From Minisyncoccota bacterium (lineage in GTDB: Bacteria; Patescibacteriota; Minisyncoccia; Phycocordibacterales; Zambryskibacteraceae), in the NCBI GenBank assembly GCA_020059045.1, contig JAGVCW010000018.1, forward strand, positions 25,320-89,319: a stretch of 64,000 nt of DNA, given 5' to 3'. Positions 3,146 through 55,891 of the stretch are shown in pieces. Position 1 is the first letter of the stretch. Each line of letters opens with the position of its first letter. Made by a program: the position numbers and the translations under genes. The notes under the pieces are model-generated. The model was not told where the DNA came from. It saw only the letters and a list, made by a program, of their open reading frames with translations, and did not search any database.

Positions 3146-3234
3146 ATAGTTGAATAAAGAATAGCGAATATCGAGGGTGGAGTAAACATACTCTTAATTC
3201 ATCATTCCTTATTCCTTACTCTTCCTCCGACATC

Positions 3235-4152
3235 CTACAGCCAGTGCCTATGCTTAAAATAAGCAAACATGAGAAGACAGGCAAAAGCCATAATTCCGAG
3301 TATGTACCAGAAATCGTTCGGTGATCCAATGATAGGGACCGAATCAGCTTCAATGGAAAAGATAGCCGCAATAAGTGTTAGTGGGAATGTCACAAACGCC
3401 ATAATAGTTAGCGTTTTCATGATCTCATTTTCCTTTGTAGAAAGTATTGAATTGTTCGTTTCTCGTAGTTCAGCCACAAACTCCAGGTTATTTGTCAGAA
3501 TATTTTGAACCTTTGAGTACTCGTTTATTACGGACTTAATGTGGTGAGAGAAGTATTCTCCAAACATTCTGTGTCCGAACGAATCAAGCGAATCCAGGAT
3601 CTCCCGATGGAAAACTGTTATTTTTCTGAAGTTCAGTAGTTCGCGGCTCACTTCAGAGAGTGCACGAACCATTTCTTTCTCTTTTCCTTCAAATATATTT
3701 TTTTCAATTTTCGAGAGCCAATTATCAATATACTCAAGTTCGTTGAAAAGTGACATATAAATCTCATTTACAATACCAAAGAAGATTTCCCCGGTAATAT
3801 TTTCACCGAATCCCTTATCAAGTATTGTGTTAACCTCTACCACTTTTGCAAACTTGTCTACAGAGTCTATGGTGTCGTAGCGGGTAGTAATGAGGAAGTT
3901 CTTCCCAATGACGAAATCAATTTCCTGTCGGACCTCACTATCAGTATGGCTGTGTTTGAAAGCGGGGAAATGCAGAATAACGTATATATATTGTTTGTAG
4001 AGCTCTACTCTAGATTTGATAGTAGGGGAGATCAGCTCATGAGCAATATCTCTACTTAAAGAGAATTCCTCCATCACACTTCTGATCTCATCTTCTGTGG
4101 GTTTGGTGATATCTATCCAGACTACACCTCTGTAGTTATATCGATTTATCAT
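3235..4152 (-). CDS. CorA-family divalent cation transporter homologue lacking the GMN signature
   Basis: 305 aa with two C-terminal TM helices and a CorA-like C-terminus (LTIMAFVTFPLTLIAAIFSIEADSVP...YFKHRHWL). The position of the canonical YGMNF loop reads FSIEA instead. Confidence 0.75.
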   Translation of the reverse strand: MINRYNYRGVVWIDITKPTEDEIRSVMEEFSLSRDIAHELISPTIKSRVELYKQYIYVILHFPAFKHSHTDSEVRQEIDFVIGKNFLITTRYDTIDSVDKFAKVVEVNTILDKGFGENITGEIFFGIVNEIYMSLFNELEYIDNWLSKIEKNIFEGKEKEMVRALSEVSRELLNFRKITVFHREILDSLDSFGHRMFGEYFSHHIKSVINEYSKVQNILTNNLEFVAELRETNNSILSTKENEIMKTLTIMAFVTFPLTLIAAIFSIEADSVPIIGSPNDFWYILGIMAFACLLMFAYFKHRHWL

Positions 4153-5587: not shown

Positions 5588-5715
5588 ATCCCGTTAGAGA
5601 CGGTCGGGGTTAAGAGTAATATACAATAGTAATAAGCGTTTAGAGGTCGAAAAAATCATTTAATAAAAAATCTAATCAAGACAGGAATCGAAAGGTTCCT
5701 TGTCTCTAACGGGAT
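5588..5715 (+). repeat. TIR-bounded ~125 bp element, copy 3 (ATCCCGTTAGA ... TCTAACGGGAT), ending in the rplI start codon
   Basis: A perfect 11 bp inverted repeat at 5588-5598 and 5705-5715. The final AT of the downstream repeat is the first two bases of the rplI ATG (5714). An internal hairpin GACAGGAAtcgaaaggTTCCTTGTC precedes the downstream repeat. Related copies are at 26261-26385 and 54938-55062. Confidence 0.7.
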
Positions 5716-6800: not shown

Positions 6801-6831
6801 AAAATGTTAAACACTCGGTGTTTAACATTTT
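6801..6831. terminator. bidirectional intrinsic terminator (perfect 14 bp inverted repeat flanked by A- and T-runs)
   Basis: AAAATGTTAAACACtcgGTGTTTAACATTTT lies between rnpB and rpmA on the minus strand. Confidence 0.6.
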
Positions 6832-6849
6832 AGAATCAAAATAATATAT

Positions 6850-7065
6850 AAAAAAAGATCCTGCAGGTTGCATTCGCCTCCTCTTTACTCCTCACTCTTA
6901 ATTCTCTGCTCCTAATTCTTTATTCTCCATTCCTCATTCTACGATTCATCATTCATTCTTCTCCCTTTCCACTGCACTCATTATTTTAGTAGTTAGATCA
7001 ATTAGAAATTCTCTCCCTTACTCCTCATTCTTCCCCCGCTCTTGCTACGTTGTTGGTTGTCGGTG
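6850..7065. repeat. polypyrimidine (+ strand) ATTCNT/TCCTCATTC-rich tract, locus A, containing a 39 bp core shared with locus B (6979-7017)
   Basis: Low-complexity CT-rich + strand run (tcctcattc, attcat repeats). The core cattattttagtagttagatcaattagaaattctctccc matches 37848-37886 at 35 of 39 positions. Confidence 0.6.
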
Positions 7066-7952: not shown

Positions 7953-8195
7953 ATGCCGAAAAAATATAAAATTATTTTTCTACAAACTGCGGGATTTCTC
8001 TTATTTGTGCTTGGAGTTATTTCTCTTTTTCTACCTTTTTTACAGGGTATAATATTTATCATATGCGGCCTCTATCTCATGTCTCTTAGTAATCCAAAGT
8101 ATGAAAAATTATTTAATGAAAGCCTCTCGAAGTTTCCCAGATTACATCGTATGTATATCCGTTTTCATAATAAAATAAAAGAATGGTTATTGTAG
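7953..8195 (+). CDS. small two-TM membrane protein (DUF454/YbaN-like?)
   Basis: 80 aa, with hydrophobic segments FLQTAGFLLFVLGVISLFLPFLQGIIFIICGLYLM. Confidence 0.35.
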   Translation: MPKKYKIIFLQTAGFLLFVLGVISLFLPFLQGIIFIICGLYLMSLSNPKYEKLFNESLSKFPRLHRMYIRFHNKIKEWLL

Positions 8196-8770
8196 ATGTA
8201 GAGACTACAGGTACAGACCCAAACAAGCACTCTCTTGTAAGCATTGGTGCAGTTGAGTTTGAGCGGCCAGATAGGCAATTTTACGAAGAGTGCCGGATTT
8301 GGGATGGAGCTCATATGGATCCAGAAGCACTTCAAATAAACGGTTTAAGTGAAAGTGATGTTACCGATCCGTCAAAGCAGACGGAAGCTGAACTTGTAGC
8401 AAATTTTAGTAGGTGGACCGAGGGGTGCACTGACCTCGTCATTGCTGGACAAAATGTTTTCTTCGACATGCGATTTATTGAGCAAGCCGCATTAAGAGCA
8501 GGTGTTTCAGTGTCCTTTTCAAGAAGAATAGTAGATAACCACTCAATTACTTATTACCACATGAGAAAACGTCGAATAACGCCGCCACTACATGGTCGCA
8601 AGACCAATCTCGATTCGGATACCATAATGGCTTATGTTGGTATCCCAGTAGAGCCGAAGCCGCACAATGGGCTGAATGGTGCGATCTGGGAAGCAGAAGC
8701 ACTTCACAGACTAATGTTTGATAAACCACTTTTTGATCGATTTAAAATACACGCGATTCCTTGGCTTTAA
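8183..8770 (+). CDS. DEDD-family 3'-5' exonuclease (DnaQ-like)
   Basis: 195 aa. The Exo I motif MVIVDVETTGTDP sits at the N-terminus, followed by a DEDDh-type fold pattern. Confidence 0.75.
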   Translation: MVIVDVETTGTDPNKHSLVSIGAVEFERPDRQFYEECRIWDGAHMDPEALQINGLSESDVTDPSKQTEAELVANFSRWTEGCTDLVIAGQNVFFDMRFIEQAALRAGVSVSFSRRIVDNHSITYYHMRKRRITPPLHGRKTNLDSDTIMAYVGIPVEPKPHNGLNGAIWEAEALHRLMFDKPLFDRFKIHAIPWL

Positions 8771-25134: not shown

Positions 25135-26262
25135 CTAGCCTTCATGCCTAAGTGCAATCTTGAGTATTTCATCAGCAATTTTCCGGGCTGCATCAGGTTT
25201 TACAAATAATTTCGCTGACTCCTTCATTTTAGATATGATCTCGGGTGCCCCAAGAATTCTTGAAACTTCTGCAAATAAAATATTTCCGGTAAGATTATTT
25301 TCCTCAATTACTTCTGAGCTTCCGGTACGTGCGTAAGCAAAGGCATTTTTCGTTTGATCGTGGCTCACCTCCTCGGGGATAGGTATCATAATGGACGGGA
25401 TGCCCCACGCCGCAACCTCAAATATTGCTGACCCTGCTCTCGATATAACCAAATTTGCTGCTCCAGCAGCCGAACGCAATGTTAGGGCATCGAGATAGCT
25501 GTATGGGCGGTACCTGTCCTTGTGCTCACTTTGAAAGAGTACCGCCTCAGCCACCTTCTTAACTTCCTCAAAGTTTCCTTTGCCAGTCTGATGAACAACT
25601 TGGTACTTCTCTACTAGCCTTGGAAGAACTTCAAGCAGGGCCTCATTTATCCTCTTTGATCCAAGTGATCCGCCAAGTATAAGAATAGTGGAAAGTAGAG
25701 GGTCAAGTTTTAGAAATTCATGAGCATTCGTTGCAAGTGGCATGAAGAATTCCTTCCTAATGGGGTGCCCAGTATGTGCAACTTTCTCCATTGGGAAATA
25801 TGCTGCAGCTTCACCATACGAAACTGCAATCCGGGTTGCAAATTTACCTGCCCATTTACTTACTTTGCCAGGTCGAGTATCTGATTCGTGAATAACAACT
25901 GGAATTCTAAGTATTCTTGCCGCAAATAGTGCTGGGAAACTCGCATACCCTCCCTTGCCAAACACAACATCAGGGTATATCAAGAATATTTCCCAAATGG
26001 ATTTTATAACTCCCCACCCGGTTTTAAACAGGTCAAAGAAGTTCATTATCGAGAAATATCTTCGAATTTTACCAGCGTAGTTCTTCTTGTAAATTATGTT
26101 GTTATTAAAAAGAACTCCCGCATTGTATGGTGAGGGTGACATATAGTAGAGTTCCACATCTACAAGTTTATTTTCTCGGACAATCTGGTTCAGCTCCTCG
26201 GCAATTGCAATAATCGGGTAAAAATGCCCGCCTGACCCCCCTCCTGTAAATAAGATCTTCAT
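25135..26262 (-). CDS. murG: undecaprenyl-PP-MurNAc-pentapeptide-UDP-GlcNAc GlcNAc transferase
   Basis: 375 aa. The N-terminal MKILFTGGGSGGHFYPIIAIAEEL is the GT28 MurG hallmark. Confidence 0.92.
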   Translation of the reverse strand: MKILFTGGGSGGHFYPIIAIAEELNQIVRENKLVDVELYYMSPSPYNAGVLFNNNIIYKKNYAGKIRRYFSIMNFFDLFKTGWGVIKSIWEIFLIYPDVVFGKGGYASFPALFAARILRIPVVIHESDTRPGKVSKWAGKFATRIAVSYGEAAAYFPMEKVAHTGHPIRKEFFMPLATNAHEFLKLDPLLSTILILGGSLGSKRINEALLEVLPRLVEKYQVVHQTGKGNFEEVKKVAEAVLFQSEHKDRYRPYSYLDALTLRSAAGAANLVISRAGSAIFEVAAWGIPSIMIPIPEEVSHDQTKNAFAYARTGSSEVIEENNLTGNILFAEVSRILGAPEIISKMKESAKLFVKPDAARKIADEILKIALRHEG

Positions 26263-26385
26263 CCCGTTAGAAGTAAGGAGTCGTGAGACTCCTGTTTTGT
26301 TAGTATAGTAAATAAAACGCTATCTCGAGTATCTGGCACATACAAATTTATCGTTGTTTTAAAGCACAACCACTTCTAACGGGAT
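26261..26385 (-). repeat. TIR-bounded ~125 bp element, copy 1, oriented so that its terminal repeat ends in the murG ATG
   Basis: ATCCCGTTAGA at 26261-26271 and TCTAACGGGAT at 26375-26385. On the minus strand the sequence reads ...CCTTACTTCTAACGGG-ATG-AAG, the murG start. An internal hairpin CAGGAGTCtcacGACTCCT is present. It shares the blocks GATAAATTTGTAT.TG.CAGAT and TTTTATTTA with copy 2. Confidence 0.7.
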
Positions 26386-26428
26386 GAATCCCGTTAGATC
26401 CTCATTTTAACATATAATTTTGGCACTT

Positions 26429-27538
26429 TTAGCTCACTTTCTTTTGTCCTTTAGATATATTTAATATTATGCCGACTTCAGCCAGGGTAAAGAAAAGAGC
26501 TGTCCCCCCATGGCTCACAAAAGGCAGTGGGTTTCCAGTAAGCGGCAAAATCCCAAGCATCGCACCCATATTGAGAAATGCTTGGGAAACAATTAGTGCA
26601 ACAATTCCAACTATTAAATATTTACCAAACGGGTCCGTGGTCCTTGCTGCAATTTTGAGCCCACGTAAACCAAACAGTACAAACATCGCAACTATTGCAA
26701 TAGTTCCAGTAAAGCCGAATTCCTCACCAGCCACAGCAAATATAGAGTCACCTGTTGGTTCGGGCAGAAAGTTGAATTTTTGAATACTTTGGCCGAAACC
26801 TCTTCCAGTTAATCCACCAGAACCTATTGCAATGAGAGATTGTTGGATCTGGTAACTTGAAGTAAGACCATTTTCCGCAGGATTAATAAACGTTTGAATT
26901 CTTTGTTTGATATATGGTCTTGCACTAATGATTATTCCCACACATAGCACACCAATGAGAAACACAGGTATCATATGGCGCCACTTTCCACCCGCTGTAA
27001 GAAATATAGCAAACCCAGCTAGCGCAGTTATTGCGAGTACATCAGTATCAGGTTGGCTAAGGAGCACTATGGCAACAAGTCCGAGAATTACAAGCATAGG
27101 GAGAAGCCCATATTTTATGGTAGTAACTTTGTCCTTAATCCCCGCTACCCATGCAGACATATAAACTACAAAAGAAATTTTCAAAAGTTCAGATGGTTGG
27201 AAAGAGAATCCGAACAAGTGTAGCCACCTGTGTGCTCCTCCATGCTCAAATCCTATACCCGGGACAAACACTAGTACAGAAAGAATAAGTGATAAGCCAA
27301 AGGCGATAAATGACACCTTTCTCCAGAACCGGTACGGTATGCGCGATGTAATTATTAAAGCGAGAGTCCCTAGAAATAAACCGAAAAATGTTTGAGAAAA
27401 CGTTGCGCTTGAGTATCTGTCGCCTCCTTTTGCAAGTAGACCAAGTGATGCAGAGCTAAATATGAAAAAACCTACAACAATTAGTGCAATAACAGAGAAC
27501 AAAAACATTCTGTCGAAGCTTTTAGACATCGCATTCAT
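26429..27538 (-). CDS. ftsW: SEDS-family peptidoglycan polymerase FtsW/RodA
   Basis: 369 aa, 10 TM, with the conserved SEDS C-terminal region (PLPFVSHGGTALFFTL). Confidence 0.88.
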   Translation of the reverse strand: MNAMSKSFDRMFLFSVIALIVVGFFIFSSASLGLLAKGGDRYSSATFSQTFFGLFLGTLALIITSRIPYRFWRKVSFIAFGLSLILSVLVFVPGIGFEHGGAHRWLHLFGFSFQPSELLKISFVVYMSAWVAGIKDKVTTIKYGLLPMLVILGLVAIVLLSQPDTDVLAITALAGFAIFLTAGGKWRHMIPVFLIGVLCVGIIISARPYIKQRIQTFINPAENGLTSSYQIQQSLIAIGSGGLTGRGFGQSIQKFNFLPEPTGDSIFAVAGEEFGFTGTIAIVAMFVLFGLRGLKIAARTTDPFGKYLIVGIVALIVSQAFLNMGAMLGILPLTGNPLPFVSHGGTALFFTLAEVGIILNISKGQKKVS

Positions 27539-31505: not shown

Positions 31506-31728
31506 TACAATGTGTCAAATTATAGCCTAAACAAGCCATTTCCCTAACAATTGACTTATACAAACTCCGTGCTATAATTTTGCTCATCTTGTTCTTCCGA
31601 GTGAGTCTGAAGTGTATCTCGCGCGTTAATCAAATTTCTTGTCCGCTTGCATCTAAGGCAGCAGATTTTTTAATTTTCAATTTTCTAAACTTATCCAACT
31701 TATACAACATATTAAACTTATCAACTAA

Positions 31729-33024
31729 CTACGGGTTAAGCCTTTTTACATCCCTTGGCAAGAATGTTGCCTCTCTCACGTTAGGCAGATCAAGTATTTT
31801 CATTATGAAGCGCCCTGGTCCAATACCAGCACCACCATGTGGCGGCACGCCAAAGCGAAAGAAGTTTATATAGTCACGAAGTGGTTCTAGATCCATTCCT
31901 TTTTCAAGAGCATGTTTTTCCAGAATCTCTGGTCGGTGCTCGCGCTGGGCAAGTGTAGTTACTTCAAGTCCTCTGTATATAAGATCAGCTCTTCGAGCAA
32001 ATTCTGGGTTATCAGGATGCCTCATGTGATAGAAAGCACTTCTTGACTTGTGATAATCCATGAGGAAAACAAACTCATGGTCATATTTTTCCCTCACATA
32101 CTCATATAGTGCCTTCTCCTCTTCAGGTGATATGTCATAAGGCTCACTACTAGGTACCCCTTTTCCAGCTAATATTTTTTTTGCGTCAACCATACTTATT
32201 CGTGGGAATGGTCTTTTCGGTACGGTTATAGCTGTCAGAGGATAAGCCGCGAGTATTGATTCAAAGCCAGATACAATCATTCCTTCTTCGGCATCCATAA
32301 CATCGTGATGTGATTCGACGAACCCCATCTCGAAGTCCCAGCCAGTAAATTCTGTAAGATGTCTTGTGGTAAACGAGTGTTCCGCTCGAAATACTGGACC
32401 AACCATACAAACTTTCTCAAATCCTGAAGCAATAGCCATTTGTTTATAAAATTGTGGCGATTGGGCAAGGTATGCTTTACGATCGAAATACTCCACAGTG
32501 AAGACTTCCGCCCCTGTCTCAGACGGGGTTGACATAAATGCCGGTGGATATACTTGTATAAAGTCATTTTCTGACCAGTACTTTCTCCAACCTTTTTCAA
32601 ATTCTGTCCAAACTTTAAATATCTGTGTTTTCTCAGGCTTACGTAGATCAATCCATCTATAATCGAATCTTACAGGAGCCTCTGTTTCCTCTCCACCCTT
32701 TAAGGTAACGACTGGTATTGGGAGTTCGGGCTCTGAAGCCGATAGTACTTGGAGATCTTCAATTTGTATTTCAAAGCCACCTGGTGCATTAGTTTCCTTC
32801 TTTACACTTCCTGTTATGCGAACTACGGACTCTAAAGTTAGATCCTTTGCGCTTTCAAAGGTTTGGCTATCCTTTGTAATAACAACTTGCACAATACCAG
32901 TCACATCTCTAAGTACTAGGAAAATAATCTTGCTCTGGATACGGAGGGCCTGTGCAAACCCCTGAAGAGTAATACTTTTTCCTTCGTGACTTGCCAAATC
33001 TTTAGTATGAATTGCCTTAAGCAT
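31729..33024 (-). CDS. class IIb aspartyl/asparaginyl-tRNA synthetase (compact type)
   Basis: 431 aa with an N-terminal OB anticodon-binding domain and class II motifs 2/3 (FRAEHSFTTRHLTEF...GGAGIGPGRF). Asp versus Asn specificity cannot be resolved from the sequence alone. Confidence 0.82.
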   Translation of the reverse strand: MLKAIHTKDLASHEGKSITLQGFAQALRIQSKIIFLVLRDVTGIVQVVITKDSQTFESAKDLTLESVVRITGSVKKETNAPGGFEIQIEDLQVLSASEPELPIPVVTLKGGEETEAPVRFDYRWIDLRKPEKTQIFKVWTEFEKGWRKYWSENDFIQVYPPAFMSTPSETGAEVFTVEYFDRKAYLAQSPQFYKQMAIASGFEKVCMVGPVFRAEHSFTTRHLTEFTGWDFEMGFVESHHDVMDAEEGMIVSGFESILAAYPLTAITVPKRPFPRISMVDAKKILAGKGVPSSEPYDISPEEEKALYEYVREKYDHEFVFLMDYHKSRSAFYHMRHPDNPEFARRADLIYRGLEVTTLAQREHRPEILEKHALEKGMDLEPLRDYINFFRFGVPPHGGAGIGPGRFIMKILDLPNVREATFLPRDVKRLNP

Positions 33025-36148: not shown

Positions 36149-36432
36149 TGTAATGGAATATATTATTTGGTATGGATAATTTCGACATTGTGTCCCGGAT
36201 TACAAGCTAGGCTCGTAAATTGCGGTACATATATTGTGTATTATTAAGATGAATATTTAGTGATCACCACTCAACATAATTTCTCACCAATTTTACTGGC
36301 AGTTCTTCTCTCCCTGCAATTATCTTGATAAATTTTGCACATTAAAACTTTAGAATATATAAAATTGTGTGTAACAAAACTGACGGCCGTCAGTTTTGTT
36401 ACAGTCTCTTTTTGTACACAAACAAACTGAGG

Positions 36433-37799: not shown

Positions 37800-37925
37800 G
37801 CATCAACCCCCCCAAGTATTTATTCATATCATTCGTGGGATCGTATTCATTATTTTAGAAATTAGATCAATTAGGAATTTTCTCCCTTTTTATTCCTCCT
37901 TCATTTTTCCTTATTCTTCCTTCCC
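37800..37925. repeat. polypyrimidine/ATTCNT tract, locus B, with a 39 bp core (37848-37886) nearly identical to 6979-7017
   Basis: The core cattattttagaaattagatcaattaggaattttctccc is followed by ttattcctccttcatttttccttattcttcc. It runs into the 3' end of the histidine kinase ORF. Confidence 0.6.
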
Positions 37926-39578
37926 CGGTATCTCAATATAGAATGTTGAGCCCTTTCCTTTACCATCTGACTCCACCCACACTCGCCCCTTATGTGCCTC
38001 AACCATTTGCTTAGCAACATATAGTCCTAGTCCTGTCCCAGAGACATTTGTTTTGGATGCGTCCTTAGCTCGCGAAAACATTGAAAAGAGCTTCGATGTT
38101 TCCTCAGGTGCTATACCCACACCAGTGTCAGTTATTGAGAACCTAATTATATGATCAGAAGACTTCCCCACAGAAACTGTGATACCTCCTTTTGGTGTGT
38201 ACTTTATCGAATTATCAACAATATTACCTATAACTTGCTTAATCTTACCTCGGTCGGCTCTTACCATGTATTGCCCGGGATTTGCCTTGTACTCAAAGCT
38301 AAGGCCTTTTTTCTCTACATTTGGACGCAGTTCAGCTACTACTTCTCGAGCAAGCACTTCCGCATCAAAGTCTGTTAATTCGTATTTCATTCTTCCCTGC
38401 TCAATTCGTGATACATCAAGGAACTCGTTTACAATTTTAATAAGGCTCTTTGATGATTGATCAATAATACCTATTTGGTCCATGATCTTTGGAGGTACTT
38501 CGCCAAAGTCTCCTTCCAGAAGCATAGAAGCATATCCATCAATTGCTGTCAGTGGAGCTCGAATTTGATGTGATGCAAATGATAAGAACTGGGATTTAAG
38601 CTGATCTAATTCCCTGAGTCTTGTATTCGCCTTCTCTAAGTCTTGTGCAAGCTTCTCTATCCTTTCGCGCTGCTTAATTTCACGTTCAACACTTCTGATA
38701 AGTAGGTACCCGAAAACAAGTGTAAGCAGGACAGTTATGGTATTTAAGATAATGGCAGTTCCTCCATCTATGAATGTATATTGGGTTCCTATAAGTGCAA
38801 CAAGACCAGCAACGAGCATCTGTACTCCCAAAACCTTTATGTTAAAGGCCTGGAACTTGACAATTAAATATGCAAGGAACGCTACAAATACAATCATTCC
38901 AAATAGGCCGTATATTTCAAAAGTATAGTTGCCTGTTCTCTCAGAAATCTGTCCAGCAATGAAGAATGCGAATATGAATCCCAAGATGCCGATGGTTAGT
39001 AGGCTAATCTGTTTTCGTAGCTGACTTTTTGCCTCAAAAAATTTATAAATACCAAACCCCAGAATAATGACAGACAAAATAAGCTTAAGATAAAATACAT
39101 AGCTCAAAAACAAAGGGCTCTCCAGAGCCACACACTCCTGCAGATCATATTCTGTTAAATATGACGTTGTTGGCGCAGCAATAATAATTGGCAAAAGTAG
39201 CAGTGCGAAACCAATCTTTGCAATTATTGGGGCATCCTTCTTTGTAATAAATACATATACAAAATAAAGACACAGTTCAAACAGAAGTACACTGAAAATT
39301 TCAATAGGTGCCCACGAGAACATAAGAACACTTGCCTTATCGTAGTTTATCCAAATTGCAAGATCGAGAAACGCCCATAATGAGAATACCAGACTAATGG
39401 AGAGTAATATTTTGGCCAAAAGGTCCTTTTTGTTTTGTGTGTATACAAAAACTCCTGCCAAAAGTGCAATTATTGCTGTAGGTATGTGCGAGTAATATAA
39501 AAGCTTTAAGAGATTATCGACAAACTCCCCACAGTAGGCGAGGTTCTCTGAAAAGTTGAAATCAATAATTTCTAGCAT
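37911..39578 (-). CDS. sensor histidine kinase with a multi-TM N-terminal sensor domain
   Basis: 555 aa with 6-7 predicted TM helices. The HisKA H-box is FASHQIRAPLTAI, and HATPase_c N/G boxes are present (DNSIKYT, DTGVGI, GTGLGL). Confidence 0.85.
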   Translation of the reverse strand: MLEIIDFNFSENLAYCGEFVDNLLKLLYYSHIPTAIIALLAGVFVYTQNKKDLLAKILLSISLVFSLWAFLDLAIWINYDKASVLMFSWAPIEIFSVLLFELCLYFVYVFITKKDAPIIAKIGFALLLLPIIIAAPTTSYLTEYDLQECVALESPLFLSYVFYLKLILSVIILGFGIYKFFEAKSQLRKQISLLTIGILGFIFAFFIAGQISERTGNYTFEIYGLFGMIVFVAFLAYLIVKFQAFNIKVLGVQMLVAGLVALIGTQYTFIDGGTAIILNTITVLLTLVFGYLLIRSVEREIKQRERIEKLAQDLEKANTRLRELDQLKSQFLSFASHQIRAPLTAIDGYASMLLEGDFGEVPPKIMDQIGIIDQSSKSLIKIVNEFLDVSRIEQGRMKYELTDFDAEVLAREVVAELRPNVEKKGLSFEYKANPGQYMVRADRGKIKQVIGNIVDNSIKYTPKGGITVSVGKSSDHIIRFSITDTGVGIAPEETSKLFSMFSRAKDASKTNVSGTGLGLYVAKQMVEAHKGRVWVESDGKGKGSTFYIEIPGKEE

Positions 39579-47422: not shown

Positions 47423-47451
47423 ACCCCTTATCCCTCCTTATTCCTCATTCT

Positions 47452-48105
47452 TTATTCATTATTCTTCCCTTCATACTCTCCAATCTGAACTTTAGCTGGT
47501 CTCACAAGCTTTCCATTTAGCATATACCCTGCCTGAAACACTCCCTTCACCATATGATCTTCTTCTTTTTTAGTAACAGGAACCATGTTTACTGCCTCAT
47601 GCAGTTTTGGGTCAAATGCTTCACCAAGGGCTTTTATTTTTTCTAAACCATGACTTTCAAGGGCCGCTACTAGTTGGCCAATACTTGATTCCATACCTTT
47701 CCTCCACTCGGGAGGCAACGCCTGCCAGGCGGCCTCATCCTTTCTAGCAATTTCAAAACTATCCAGTGCTGGGATAATATCAGATAGAAGTCCGGCAGTA
47801 GCCCATTTCATAAATGTTTCTCTGTCAGAACTATCTTGCTTACGAAGATTTAGGAAATCTGCCTTATCCTTTTGCCAATTTGTTAGGTATTCCTGCTTCT
47901 CCTTTTCAGCTCTCTTAAGTTTTTCCCTAAGTTTCTTTATGGTTTCCTGCATGGACTCTTCCGCGACAACTGAGTCATCCCTATACGCATCTTCCTCAAG
48001 ATGCGTCGGGCGATCATCCACAGATGATTTAGCCAGATCTGTGTCGGTGTCGACAGTTACGTCATCGGCCTCATGATTTTCGTTTTTATCATCATCTTTT
48101 TTCAT
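47452..48105 (-). CDS. grpE: nucleotide exchange factor GrpE
   Basis: The GrpE fold is clear (coiled-coil plus C-terminal beta domain, ...RKDEAAWQALPPEWRKGME...). The start is probably M at 48105 (MKKDDDKNE). The ORF track extends it to 48195 with a hydrophobic, unlikely N-terminus. Confidence 0.85.
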   Translation of the reverse strand: MKKDDDKNENHEADDVTVDTDTDLAKSSVDDRPTHLEEDAYRDDSVVAEESMQETIKKLREKLKRAEKEKQEYLTNWQKDKADFLNLRKQDSSDRETFMKWATAGLLSDIIPALDSFEIARKDEAAWQALPPEWRKGMESSIGQLVAALESHGLEKIKALGEAFDPKLHEAVNMVPVTKKEEDHMVKGVFQAGYMLNGKLVRPAKVQIGEYEGKNNE

Positions 48106-49554: not shown

Positions 49555-49852
49555 GCAGTACAACAAGGAGCATAAATGATGAACAGGAAGTTCGACCCTG
49601 GTTAAGTACCCACTTAACCAGGGGGAAGTATGCAGTTGCTCCACATGATCGTGACCGGCAAGGCAAAGCTCGTTGGGGTCGTGAACCCCGGCAACTCTCT
49701 CAACCAGGCGTTCTGGATTGCGGAGGCTCGTAGCCGCGGGTACCACACGTCACGGGCGATGAGCGGCTTCATTCTCATCTACCGCTAGTCTGCCACTCAA
49801 GCGGTCACAAAAACGCCGTCACCTTAACAAGTGACGGCGTTCCCATTTATTT
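49555..49852 (+). ncRNA. unclassified ~300 nt GC-rich structured transcript (candidate ncRNA or cis-regulatory leader) ending at a strong intrinsic terminator
   Basis: The promoter is immediately upstream. The region is GC-rich within an AT-rich genome and contains many hairpins, for example CCCTGGTTAAgtacccaCTTAACCAGGG. The terminator AACGCCGTCACcttaacaaGTGACGGCGTT plus a U-rich tail lies at 49812-49852. The only ORFs are a 9-codon upstream ORF and a spurious minus-strand 66 aa ORF. Confidence 0.35.
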
Positions 49853-54738: not shown

Positions 54739-54822
54739 GTATTTTCTTATTTAGTATCTAAACTTATCAATCTTCTAAGCTACTTCCTAACTTATTAAAC
54801 TTTTTTAACTTATCAACTAACT

Positions 54823-54939
54823 CTATCCCTGCCTCTGCTTATGTCTAGGATTAGCTTTGCATATAACATAAACATAGCCCTTCCTTCGGACTACCTGACA
54901 CTTGGTGCACATCTTTTTTACTGAAGCCTTAACTTTCAT
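54823..54939 (-). CDS. rpmJ: 50S ribosomal protein L36 (below the ORF-track size cutoff)
   Basis: Manual translation of the minus strand gives [38 protein letters not shown] (38 aa, a C-x2-C...C...H zinc ribbon). The ATG overlaps the terminal inverted repeat of repeat copy 2. Confidence 0.85.
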
Positions 54940-55062
54940 CCCGTTAGATGTAAGGAGTCCTTAGACTCCTGTCTTGCTAGGTTATTAAATAAAACTCTAT
55001 TTCGGTCATCTGACATATACAAATTTATCATTATTCTTTACCTCGACTACATCTAACGGGAT
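54938..55062 (-). repeat. TIR-bounded ~125 bp element, copy 2, oriented so that its terminal repeat ends in the rpmJ ATG
   Basis: ATCCCGTTAGA at 54938-54948 and TCTAACGGGAT at 55052-55062. On the minus strand it reads ...CCTTACATCTAACGGG-ATG-AAAGTT. An internal hairpin CAGGAGTCtaagGACTCCT is present. It is about 75% identical to copy 1. Confidence 0.7.
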
Positions 55063-55149
55063 TCATCCCACAATATAATCTAATCAAATATACGAATTAA
55101 GATTGTACATGAGATAGTATTATAGTCAACAAAGAGTGGTATGGTTGAT

Positions 55150-55184: not shown

Positions 55185-55649
55185 GTGCTACAAATAAACA
55201 GGACCCTCCACCTAGAGGTAGCTGTGCAAAGACGTTACTACGCAATTATTCTTTTGTTGACGCTTGTTGGTCTCCTAGCAACAGCTCTGTTTGGATTAGT
55301 TCAAACGCCTGAAGAAGTGTTAGGGGCTCTTGCTTTAATAGGCACATTTTGTACCTTGGCAATCTACAACTTTCCGCATAATCGTCAATTACGACTTCAT
55401 AGGGAAATGAAGTTTGTTCTTGAGGAGATTCGTTTCATTGATAGCGAGATCGCTAACCTAGAAATCAGCAAATGGCGAATTAAAGCAGAGTACCCTATTG
55501 GTAGATCTCAAGCTCTACCACAAATATCTTGGTACCAAGCATGGAACCACAAGGAGAGAATTAGAGAATTAAAGGCAAGAAAACCAGAACGCGTTGAGAG
55601 ACTTTTCGCGCTTGTGATGAATTCCAAAATACCACTTACAATCGATTAA
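55185..55649 (+). CDS. hypothetical 2-TM membrane protein inserted between infA and rpmJ on the opposite strand
   Basis: 154 aa with a GTG start, two TM helices and a charged C-terminal helix. It is antisense to the flanking conserved ribosomal operon. Confidence 0.45.
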   Translation: MLQINRTLHLEVAVQRRYYAIILLLTLVGLLATALFGLVQTPEEVLGALALIGTFCTLAIYNFPHNRQLRLHREMKFVLEEIRFIDSEIANLEISKWRIKAEYPIGRSQALPQISWYQAWNHKERIRELKARKPERVERLFALVMNSKIPLTID

Positions 55650-55669: not shown

Positions 55670-55891
55670 TTAGAGTCTTCTAATAATTCTTCCTTTACCA
55701 CCATATGGATCAATTTCTACTTCTACACTATCACCGACAAGAATACGGATTTTATGCATACGCATTTTGCCCGATAGATACGCGAGGAATTCCTCTGCAC
55801 CGTTTTCAGGCATTACTTTAAACAAAATATTTGGGAATGCTTCGGTTACTTTTCCTATAATTATTTCTTGTTTTTTTGTTGGGTCAGGCAT
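55670..55891 (-). CDS. infA: translation initiation factor IF-1
   Basis: 73 aa S1-like OB fold, ...[51 protein letters not shown]... Confidence 0.9.

Follow-up and report, generated by a model that had tools for sequence, protein, structure and literature searches.

Correia elements (CREE/NEMIS) of Neisseria, which owe their origin or their mobility to DDE-type insertion sequences and target TA between genes, are among the closest comparisons for a repeat family that we describe here from a 64,000-nt stretch of a Minisyncoccota genome of the Patescibacteria (contig JAGVCW010000018.1, positions 25,320 to 89,319; this whole stretch is hereafter the window). Our subject is a perfect palindrome in the spacer between ftsW and murG, which is probably the junction of the distal terminal inverted repeat of one ~125-nt unit, copy B, with an orphan terminal repeat of the same mobile-element family. 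Like Correia elements, members of the family are ~100-150 bp long with terminal inverted repeats and a short flanking duplication, and they occur in many gene-adjacent copies that are transcribed into stem-forming RNA within operons. Unlike Correia elements, they have as their parent a 288-bp open reading frame (ORF) of the GIY-YIG type whose ends are the repeats themselves, and in ~90% of cases the copy is placed precisely at a start codon. Rickettsia palindromic elements (RPEs) are likewise short palindromic selfish elements tolerated in or at the edge of essential genes in reduced genomes; to our knowledge RPE insertions lie inside ORFs, in frame, and no coding parent of theirs is known, whereas this family inserts at the start codon with an ATGA overlap.

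The parent gene itself invites comparison with free-standing GIY-YIG homing endonuclease genes (T4 seg, the I-TevI catalytic domain), which are also selfish small nuclease genes between host genes. As far as we know, homing genes have one cognate site and a separate DNA-binding domain, and lack terminal repeats, flanking duplication and non-coding derivatives; the 95-aa protein of the family, by contrast, is a catalytic domain alone and is structurally nearer to UPF0213/Slx1 than to I-TevI. Its best sequence and fold matches are UPF0213/YhbQ-type proteins and the nuclease domain of eukaryotic Slx1, a structure-specific endonuclease that cuts branched DNA. We know of no UPF0213/YhbQ or Slx1 protein that is repeat-bounded or linked to mobility. 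The sites of serine invertases (hix, gix) are alike in form only, in that two ~12-bp inverted half sites flank an asymmetric, directional 2-bp centre; unlike at hix and gix, no serine recombinase is associated and the family enzyme is a nuclease. REP/REPIN-RAYT systems were considered and set aside, as the arms carry neither a GTAG nor a CGTC tag and the associated gene is GIY-YIG rather than a Y1 HUH transposase.

On the + strand the palindrome spans 26375-26398, read directly as TCTAACGGGAT (26375-26385), GA (26386-26387) and ATCCCGTTAGA (26388-26398), with 11-bp arms whose pairing ends at T26374/T26399. An earlier note on this DNA had reported it at 26376-26397; it is indeed perfect, and each arm is one pair longer than was thought. 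It lies within the 166-bp spacer that separates ftsW (26429..27538, minus strand; Pfam FTSW_RODA_SPOVE, E = 2e-87), the upstream gene in the murG operon, from murG (25135..26262, minus strand; Pfam Glyco_transf_28 and Glyco_tran_28_C), with the ftsW stop (26429-26431, minus strand) 30 nt upstream and the murG ATG (26262-26260) 113 nt downstream. Palindromy by itself is weak evidence, since perfect palindromes as good as this (arms of 11 bp or more, loop no longer than 4 nt) turned up in 8 of 100 windows simulated with a first-order Markov model, and the window holds three perfect palindromes longer than this one. The identity of the arm sequence is not due to chance, because the arm 11-mer occurs exactly seven times in the window against 0.9 occurrences expected even with one mismatch permitted. 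Six of the seven are the inverted ends of three ~125-nt units, and the seventh is the extra arm at 26388-26398.

The unit that contributes the other half of the palindrome, copy B (copy 1 of the earlier note), is a 125-nt non-coding derivative of the type known as MITEs (miniature transposable elements with inverted repeats) at 26261..26385 on the minus strand, recovered both by its 11-mers and by nhmmer in the murG sense (E = 2e-7). The murG start codon overlaps its end, which contributes the AT of the ATG. Its 14-bp inverted repeats read, on the + strand, ATCCCGTTAGAAGT at the gene-proximal end (26261..26274) and ACTTCTAACGGGAT at the distal end (26372..26385), and the flanking TTC and GAA extend the perfect repeat to 17 bp (26258-26274, 26372-26388). 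Beside the gene-proximal arm lies an internal hairpin on the minus strand, AGGAGTC-N4-GACTCCT (26276..26293), a feature of the MITE subfamily that is kept through compensatory changes.

The 24-bp junction (26375..26398), identified by sequence reading and 11-mer matches, therefore consists of the right terminal repeat of copy B, GA and the orphan terminal repeat ATCCCGTTAGA (26388..26398, + strand), of which an nhmmer profile matches just these 11 nt. The orphan follows ATGA on the + strand, giving ATG AAT CCC GTT AGA TCC TCA TTT TAA; beyond it the profile finds no further element sequence, and no partner arm lies within 420 nt. The stretch of 30 nt that separates the orphan arm from the ftsW stop (26399..26428, minus strand) is missing from relatives, whose spacers measure 10-11 nt; it may be what is left of a lost neighbouring copy. 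Most likely the orphan terminal repeat is the remnant of a neighbouring copy, and the palindrome itself probably has no function in the cell.

Relatives of the host carry this locus with no element in it. The closest MurG relatives are 76-77% identical and keep the same mraY-ftsW-murG-gltX order, but in two of them (L251, L255) the ftsW-murG spacer is 10-11 nt as against 166 nt in the window. The region reads TAA, then 10-11 nt, then ATGAAG or ATGAAA, for example ...TAAtacataaacacATGAAGATA, and is an intact site with a single ATGA and no element (empty target cacATGAAGATA). Filled and empty orthologous sites thus coexist at ftsW-murG, which amounts to insertion polymorphism. A third relative (L250, 79%) has a 104-nt spacer ending in an arm-like CGTACGGGATG, which may be a decayed copy; aligned to copy B, this spacer gave no convincing homology beyond the terminal arm-like sequence.

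Junctions of the same form recur widely. In a metagenome scan for TCTAACGGGAT-NN-ATCCCGTTAGA, in which contigs were chosen by exact match, the palindromic junction was present in at least 120 contigs, and it is also found in three genome contigs of the family (L012, L047, L078). Among the matches listed, 90 junctions are non-redundant and away from contig ends; 54 of these join two MITE-sized complete copies, while 18 have, as in the window, an orphan arm without a partner within 420 nt on one side. Orphan-arm junctions are rare (~1 in 140) in a sample of elements drawn blind to junctions. Where two copies stand in tandem, the dinucleotide at the centre is the same as the flanking repeat, being GA, GG or GT on the strand with the host gene rightward of the array and the complement on the opposite strand, and three-copy arrays exist. 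Each insertion would leave ATGA on both sides, in which case a second insertion at the same gene start would necessarily yield a tandem junction of the form ...TCTAACGGGAT-GA-ATCCCGTTAGA.... The orphan arm of the window would have arisen by deletion of its element, with the central GA flipped through hairpin-loop inversion. The suggestion in the earlier note that the terminus of a second element abuts the first is supported by this recurrence; its expectation of nested or adjacent insertions holds for adjacent, tandem ones and fails for nested ones.

Across the Patescibacteria, a genome scan (one genome per species) with the exact pattern ATCCCGTTAGA-N90-120-TCTAACGGGAT matched at least 119 contigs, by title nearly all of them metagenome-assembled genomes (MAGs) of Patescibacteria (candidate phyla radiation, CPR), with a G+C content of ~35% to 55%. 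In 125 of 140 elements among the matches listed, exactly one end provides an ATG from which a reading frame of at least 35 codons runs. These downstream genes are diverse (138 Pfam families among 103 complete proteins, each family seen at most three times), and the family is therefore not a regulon leader; a conserved leader was rejected on this ground and on that of the empty sites. Nor is there a single cognate site of the homing type, as copies precede genes of all these families. On the left (distal) side the flank matches what follows the proximal ATG; of 126 elements, 72 have ATGA there and 19 have ATGG. Both flanks carry the same dinucleotide in 98 of the 126, compared with a mean of 61.5 and a maximum of 72 in shuffled data, and 92 have a 4-nt ATGN direct repeat.

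The inverted repeat of the family is truly 14 bp long, with 11 invariant and three covarying positions: positions 12-14 vary (R, R, Y) and are still complementary in 92-96% of elements. Mismatches of the G-T (10) and A-C (14) types are equally frequent, which argues for a strand-symmetric pairing constraint at the DNA level rather than one specific to the mRNA strand. Identity of at least 70% is reached by 30% of same-locus copy pairs and by 2% of different-locus pairs (p = 7e-10). In the largest cluster, 46 of 52 members have the interior in one orientation relative to the gene, and both orientations exist in the family. Subfamilies with variant arms were seen at L059 3874-3897, L205 about 8170-8280 and L209 about 900-1100 (ACCCCGTTAGA/TCTAACGGGGT, AGCCCCGTTAGA and ATCCCGATTAGA/TCTAATCGGGAT), and exact-match scans consequently undercount the family. 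Neither the coding nor the non-coding form was found in 2.9 million viral contigs. A search of the fetched loci for a long autonomous element with distant arms returned none, and most arms with two mismatches were noise.

The coding form found in other Patescibacteria is short. It is a 288-bp ORF that runs from ATG-A|ATCCCGTTAGA to TCTAACGGGA|TGA and encodes 95 aa, and at apparently isolated palindromes elsewhere such an ORF begins at the palindrome's own ATG. It reads ATG AAT CCC GTT AGA..., that is MNPVR...YVYV...WYTG.T.DLRKRF..H..., and closes with ...KRFLSLTG*, encoded by ...CGTTTCCTATC-TCTAACGGGA-TGA; its first five and last five codons are the inverted repeats of the element. The product matches Pfam GIY-YIG (PF01541) at E = 1e-17, its score of 64 bits being well above the curated cut-off (22.6). 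In the protein database the matching clusters number more than 3,300; the best 120 are mostly 95 aa long, and 76 of them begin MNPVRD and 103 end FLSLTG. Records of 86 aa sourced from NCBI (P0002, P0047, P0072 and others) align to no more than 91% of the 95-aa query, as would be expected if the start had been placed nine codons late, at an internal Met; such a call would conceal that the ORF starts in the terminal repeat.

At loci picked by protein identity alone, the same arms bound the gene, which overlaps the next gene (RuvX or a 67-aa ORF) by ATGA. As elements sit at the ATGR of host starts with ATGN on both sides, the ORF of the element uses the start codon of the host gene as its own, and its TGA shares bases with the host ATG that the insertion regenerates. 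The ATGA type of stop/start overlap is associated with translational coupling by termination-reinitiation (PMC6728339). Beyond the arms, non-coding copies match the ORF over a 5' stretch of 20-35 nt and a 3' stretch of 25-40 nt (30/35 and 27/29 nt in L115; 30/39 in copy A of the window), global alignments of MITE interiors with the full ORF being unreliable outside these two ends. The frame of their upstream ATG stops early in 78 of 107 cases. The non-coding copies are deletion derivatives of the 288-bp ORF. We also considered whether they keep an ORF ending at the overlapping TGA and rejected this, as their lengths are not multiples of 3 and just 5 of 107 frames do so.

The AlphaFold model of the 95-aa protein (predicted local distance difference test, pLDDT, 87; a three-stranded sheet plus helices, element order E-E-H-E-H-H) has as nearest structures UPF0213 protein 1zg2 (BH0048) and the Slx1 nuclease domain, both ahead of I-TevI. 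The sequence match to 1zg2 has E = 2e-8, and Foldseek matches 1zg2, 7cq2 and 4xm5. Across 77 sequences no variation is seen at Y14, Y25, G27 and R33/R35, and conservation at E59 is 90% or more; by analogy only, these positions would be the catalytic Tyr of GIY, the Tyr of YIG, Arg and Glu. Judged by its sequence and modelled fold, the coding form is a putative GIY-YIG nuclease of the UPF0213/Slx1 branch. A larger coding element bounded by the same repeats, and a candidate for the autonomous one that the earlier note proposed to look for, exists in other genomes, although not within the window. With terminal inverted repeats, a flanking duplication, small non-coding units in multiple copies (three in the window), a repeat-bounded coding form and empty orthologous sites, the family has the features of a MITE, and the note's reading of it as MITE-like is upheld. 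As separate observations, one Paceibacterota MAG (L011, DATDWZ010000016.1) has a full-length GIY-YIG element on the ftsW start and a non-coding copy on the murG start of the same dcw cluster, and at L244 2860-2950 a full-length copy upstream of ruvX lies ~50 nt from a tRNA-like sequence on the other strand and has no motif like that of Shine-Dalgarno (SD) before its ATG.

How the elements move can be proposed from these arrangements. The GIY-YIG protein may mobilise them, in which case it would cut AT|GR|A with a 2-nt stagger in the target and at both ends of the element, and the GA ends in excision, in circle or tandem junctions and in reinsertion would be compatible with one another. The staggered-cut model fits the short 3' overhangs produced by known GIY-YIG enzymes, the 2-nt matching flanks, the exact restoration of ATGAAG on excision and the junction GGGAT-GA-ATCCC. 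Alternatively, the nuclease would cut at the base of the stem made by the paired 14-bp repeats, in the way that Slx1 cuts branched DNA, a model that fits the kinship with Slx1 and the strand-symmetric covariation. Start codons would be the sole surviving sites, with insertions elsewhere in compact genomes being lost; the start-codon pattern may come largely from selection, since 10-nt spacers make the start-codon ATGA nearly the only harmless place for an insertion.

Several observations weigh against this account. At the locus itself, the orphan arm is just 11 nt long and an origin from a whole element cannot be proven; copy B lacks a direct repeat, its flanks TTC and GAA being inverted rather than direct; and the junction dinucleotide is TC in the murG sense as opposed to GA in tandem arrays, a reversed state that is in the minority and occurs at only five other loci. 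At the level of the family, the length of the flanking repeat varies (ATG, ATGN or ATGNN), a variation for which a strict 2-nt stagger does not account, and ~10-15% of copies have their interior inverted relative to the gene, which directional insertion does not predict; indeed, neither cutting model explains the ATG-anchored repeat lengths of 3-5 nt or the inverted interiors. Small UPF0213 proteins without these arms exist, and the protein is possibly a passenger rather than the driver. Furthermore, no GIY-YIG gene lies within the 64-kb window, so the coding partner is established for the family and not for this genome.

Other roles for the palindrome have to be weighed against its origin as a junction of element ends. 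In RNA from either strand it can form a stem of 10 bp closed by a loop of 4 nt (-15.1 kcal/mol, z = -4.1 to -5.2), and the hairpin that the earlier note had predicted downstream of ftsW can therefore form. It might accordingly be thought a Rho-independent terminator or an mRNA-stabilising hairpin, as the stem begins 30 nt past the ftsW stop and a pattern scan labels the + strand terminator-like; the T-run, however, is on the antisense (+) strand only, the sense-strand stem being followed by AAGUGG, and the absence of a sense-strand U-tract together with the location inside an operon speaks against termination. With ftsW and murG 10-11 nt apart in relatives and hence co-transcribed, and with the arms being the terminal repeat of a family rather than a free-standing hairpin, we regard this role as very unlikely. 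Another possibility is a cis-regulatory RNA, in which the orphan arm would compete for the middle arm and an anti-sequestor hairpin would free the murG start codon. The murG-sense transcript carries three mutually complementary arms, a long-range stem hides the AUG (minimum free energy, MFE, -46 to -52 kcal/mol, z about -5 to -6), transcription completes the local hairpin before that stem, and copy B is without the upstream ATG kept by most copies. When the entire spacer is folded (-51.8 kcal/mol, z = -5.0), the more stable structure pairs the arms of copy B over 17 bp and buries the murG AUG; MFE and centroid folds both use this long-range stem and leave the orphan arm bulged. The rarity of orphan-arm junctions, the lack of an RNA-type strand bias in the pairing, the occurrence of both interior orientations and the absence of the element at the same site in relatives count further against such a switch; it is kinetically feasible but without comparative support, and as an explanation of the palindrome we find it quite improbable. 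No Rfam family matched the window at the gathering score, and relaxing the threshold to an E of 10 for 26200-26460 produced nothing above chance level.

A functional reading at the DNA level would make the palindrome a recognition or cleavage site of the family nuclease, kept because the enzyme acts on abutted ends, rather than a relic. The 11-bp half sites around a 2-bp centre resemble the sites of dimeric enzymes, the overhangs made by known GIY-YIG enzymes are short and 3', orphan arms often lie immediately 5' of full-length ORFs, and the junction is perfectly conserved in the metagenome contigs, though these were chosen by exact match. Yet ~95% of elements have no abutting arm, so that the full palindrome is not needed for persistence, and the window has no gene for the nuclease; this reading seems unlikely to us. 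Finally, inverted repeats around ~100 bp directly upstream of genes, with the interior in both orientations, recall invertible promoter switches (invertons), for which the palindrome would be a recombination product of an invertase. The units contain no promoter-like site, no recombinase gene is associated, and the essential host genes of so many families, the ATGN flanking repeats, the derivation from a GIY-YIG ORF and the empty orthologous sites leave invertons with hardly any likelihood. Likeness to integron attC sites (GTTAGA...TCTAAC) was examined separately and rejected, as the order of the core sites is reversed and there is no cassette.

The junction of two terminal repeats, one of them an orphan, thus remains our preferred reading of the palindrome, and it leads to a more tentative proposal. 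The family could represent an unrecognised class of transposable element, perhaps the smallest autonomous one (288 bp), whose sole gene encodes an Slx1/UPF0213-type GIY-YIG nuclease with first and last codons that are its own inverted repeats; it would move by nuclease cutting and host ligation at AT|GR|A and parasitise start codons, returning the ribosomes via the ATGA overlap, and the palindrome of the window would be a circle or tandem end junction. We put this forward as a possibility that falls somewhat short of even chances. In a literature coverage that was incomplete and leaves an earlier description possible, we came across no paper that describes these repeats or, in Patescibacteria, any GIY-YIG element bounded by repeats; the family appears undescribed. 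A MITE with its parent element is a known kind of system, but as far as we found there is no precedent for a parent enzyme of this type, for a size of 288 bp, for repeats that are coding or for the start-codon/ATGA arrangement.

If the proposal holds, a transposon type driven by a GIY-YIG nuclease joins the bacterial repertoire, and selfish DNA would have a new way of being harmless where intergenic space is almost absent, by landing on a start codon and restoring it via a coupled stop/start. It would also account for numerous unusual spacers of 110-170 nt in the genomes of Patescibacteria and for their small "GIY-YIG family" ORFs, the latter often annotated nine codons too short. The element is a sequence tag for tracing gene flow across uncultured lineages, and a 95-aa nuclease with a defined 24-bp palindromic site would make an easy biochemical target. 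A further question raised is how the essential murG, rplI and rpmJ are translated with their AUG locked in a 14-17 bp stem. Upstream of the start codons of L001-L119, SD-like motifs are at chance level (13/95), which suggests that initiation in these organisms is mostly SD-independent. A split ribosome-binding site, in which the stem would bring a left-flank SD to the AUG, was considered and rejected (SD-like 4-mers in 13/95 against 11.8 after shuffling).

The other two units of the window, both recovered by 11-mers and by nhmmer, lie at ribosomal protein genes. Copy A (128 nt, 5588..5715, + strand) ends in the ATG of rplI (L9; 5714-6163, + strand), and copy C (125 nt, 54938..55062, minus strand) in that of rpmJ (L36; 54823-54939, minus strand). 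In all three copies the gene-proximal end reads ...TCTAACGGGATG, and its ATG is the host start codon. A flanking repeat is present in C (ATGA/ATGA), partly so in A (AGGA/ATGA), where the left flank AGGA is a decayed ATGA, and absent from B. The interiors of B and C are 78% identical, and no element from another locus is more than 66% identical to B. A profile built from relatives and run over the whole window recovered just copies A, B and C and the 11-nt orphan, with no degenerate copies. In gene sense, the distal flank of copy C is GGGATGA, that is the ATGA direct repeat with a 5-bp partial second arm; the distal end of this copy (55052-55069) runs into TCATCCC, and the resulting GGGAT-TC-ATCCC is a 5-bp partial version of the palindrome, which may be a decayed orphan arm or merely the ATGA repeat after GG. 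Upstream of copy C, a 154-aa ORF (55185-55649, + strand) fills most of the ~730-nt gap between infA (55670-55891, minus strand) and rpmJ and interrupts this usually tight pair.

Beyond this family, the window contains further repeats. Its longest palindrome is a perfect one of 34 nt at 36370-36403 (17-bp arms, no spacer), followed by one with 14-bp arms at 6801-6831 and one with 12-bp arms at 49596-49623; all three may be bidirectional terminators. A second, pyrimidine-rich repeat family (CCTTATTCCTCATTC...) is found at 3190-3238, 6880-6942, 6978-7033, 37847-37933 and 47429-47481, with 82% identity over 56 nt between 6978-7033 and 37847-37902. A AACTTATC-type repeat occupies the rpmJ-rpsM spacer (54742-54822) and recurs in intergenic DNA at 31669-31730 with 72-85% identity.

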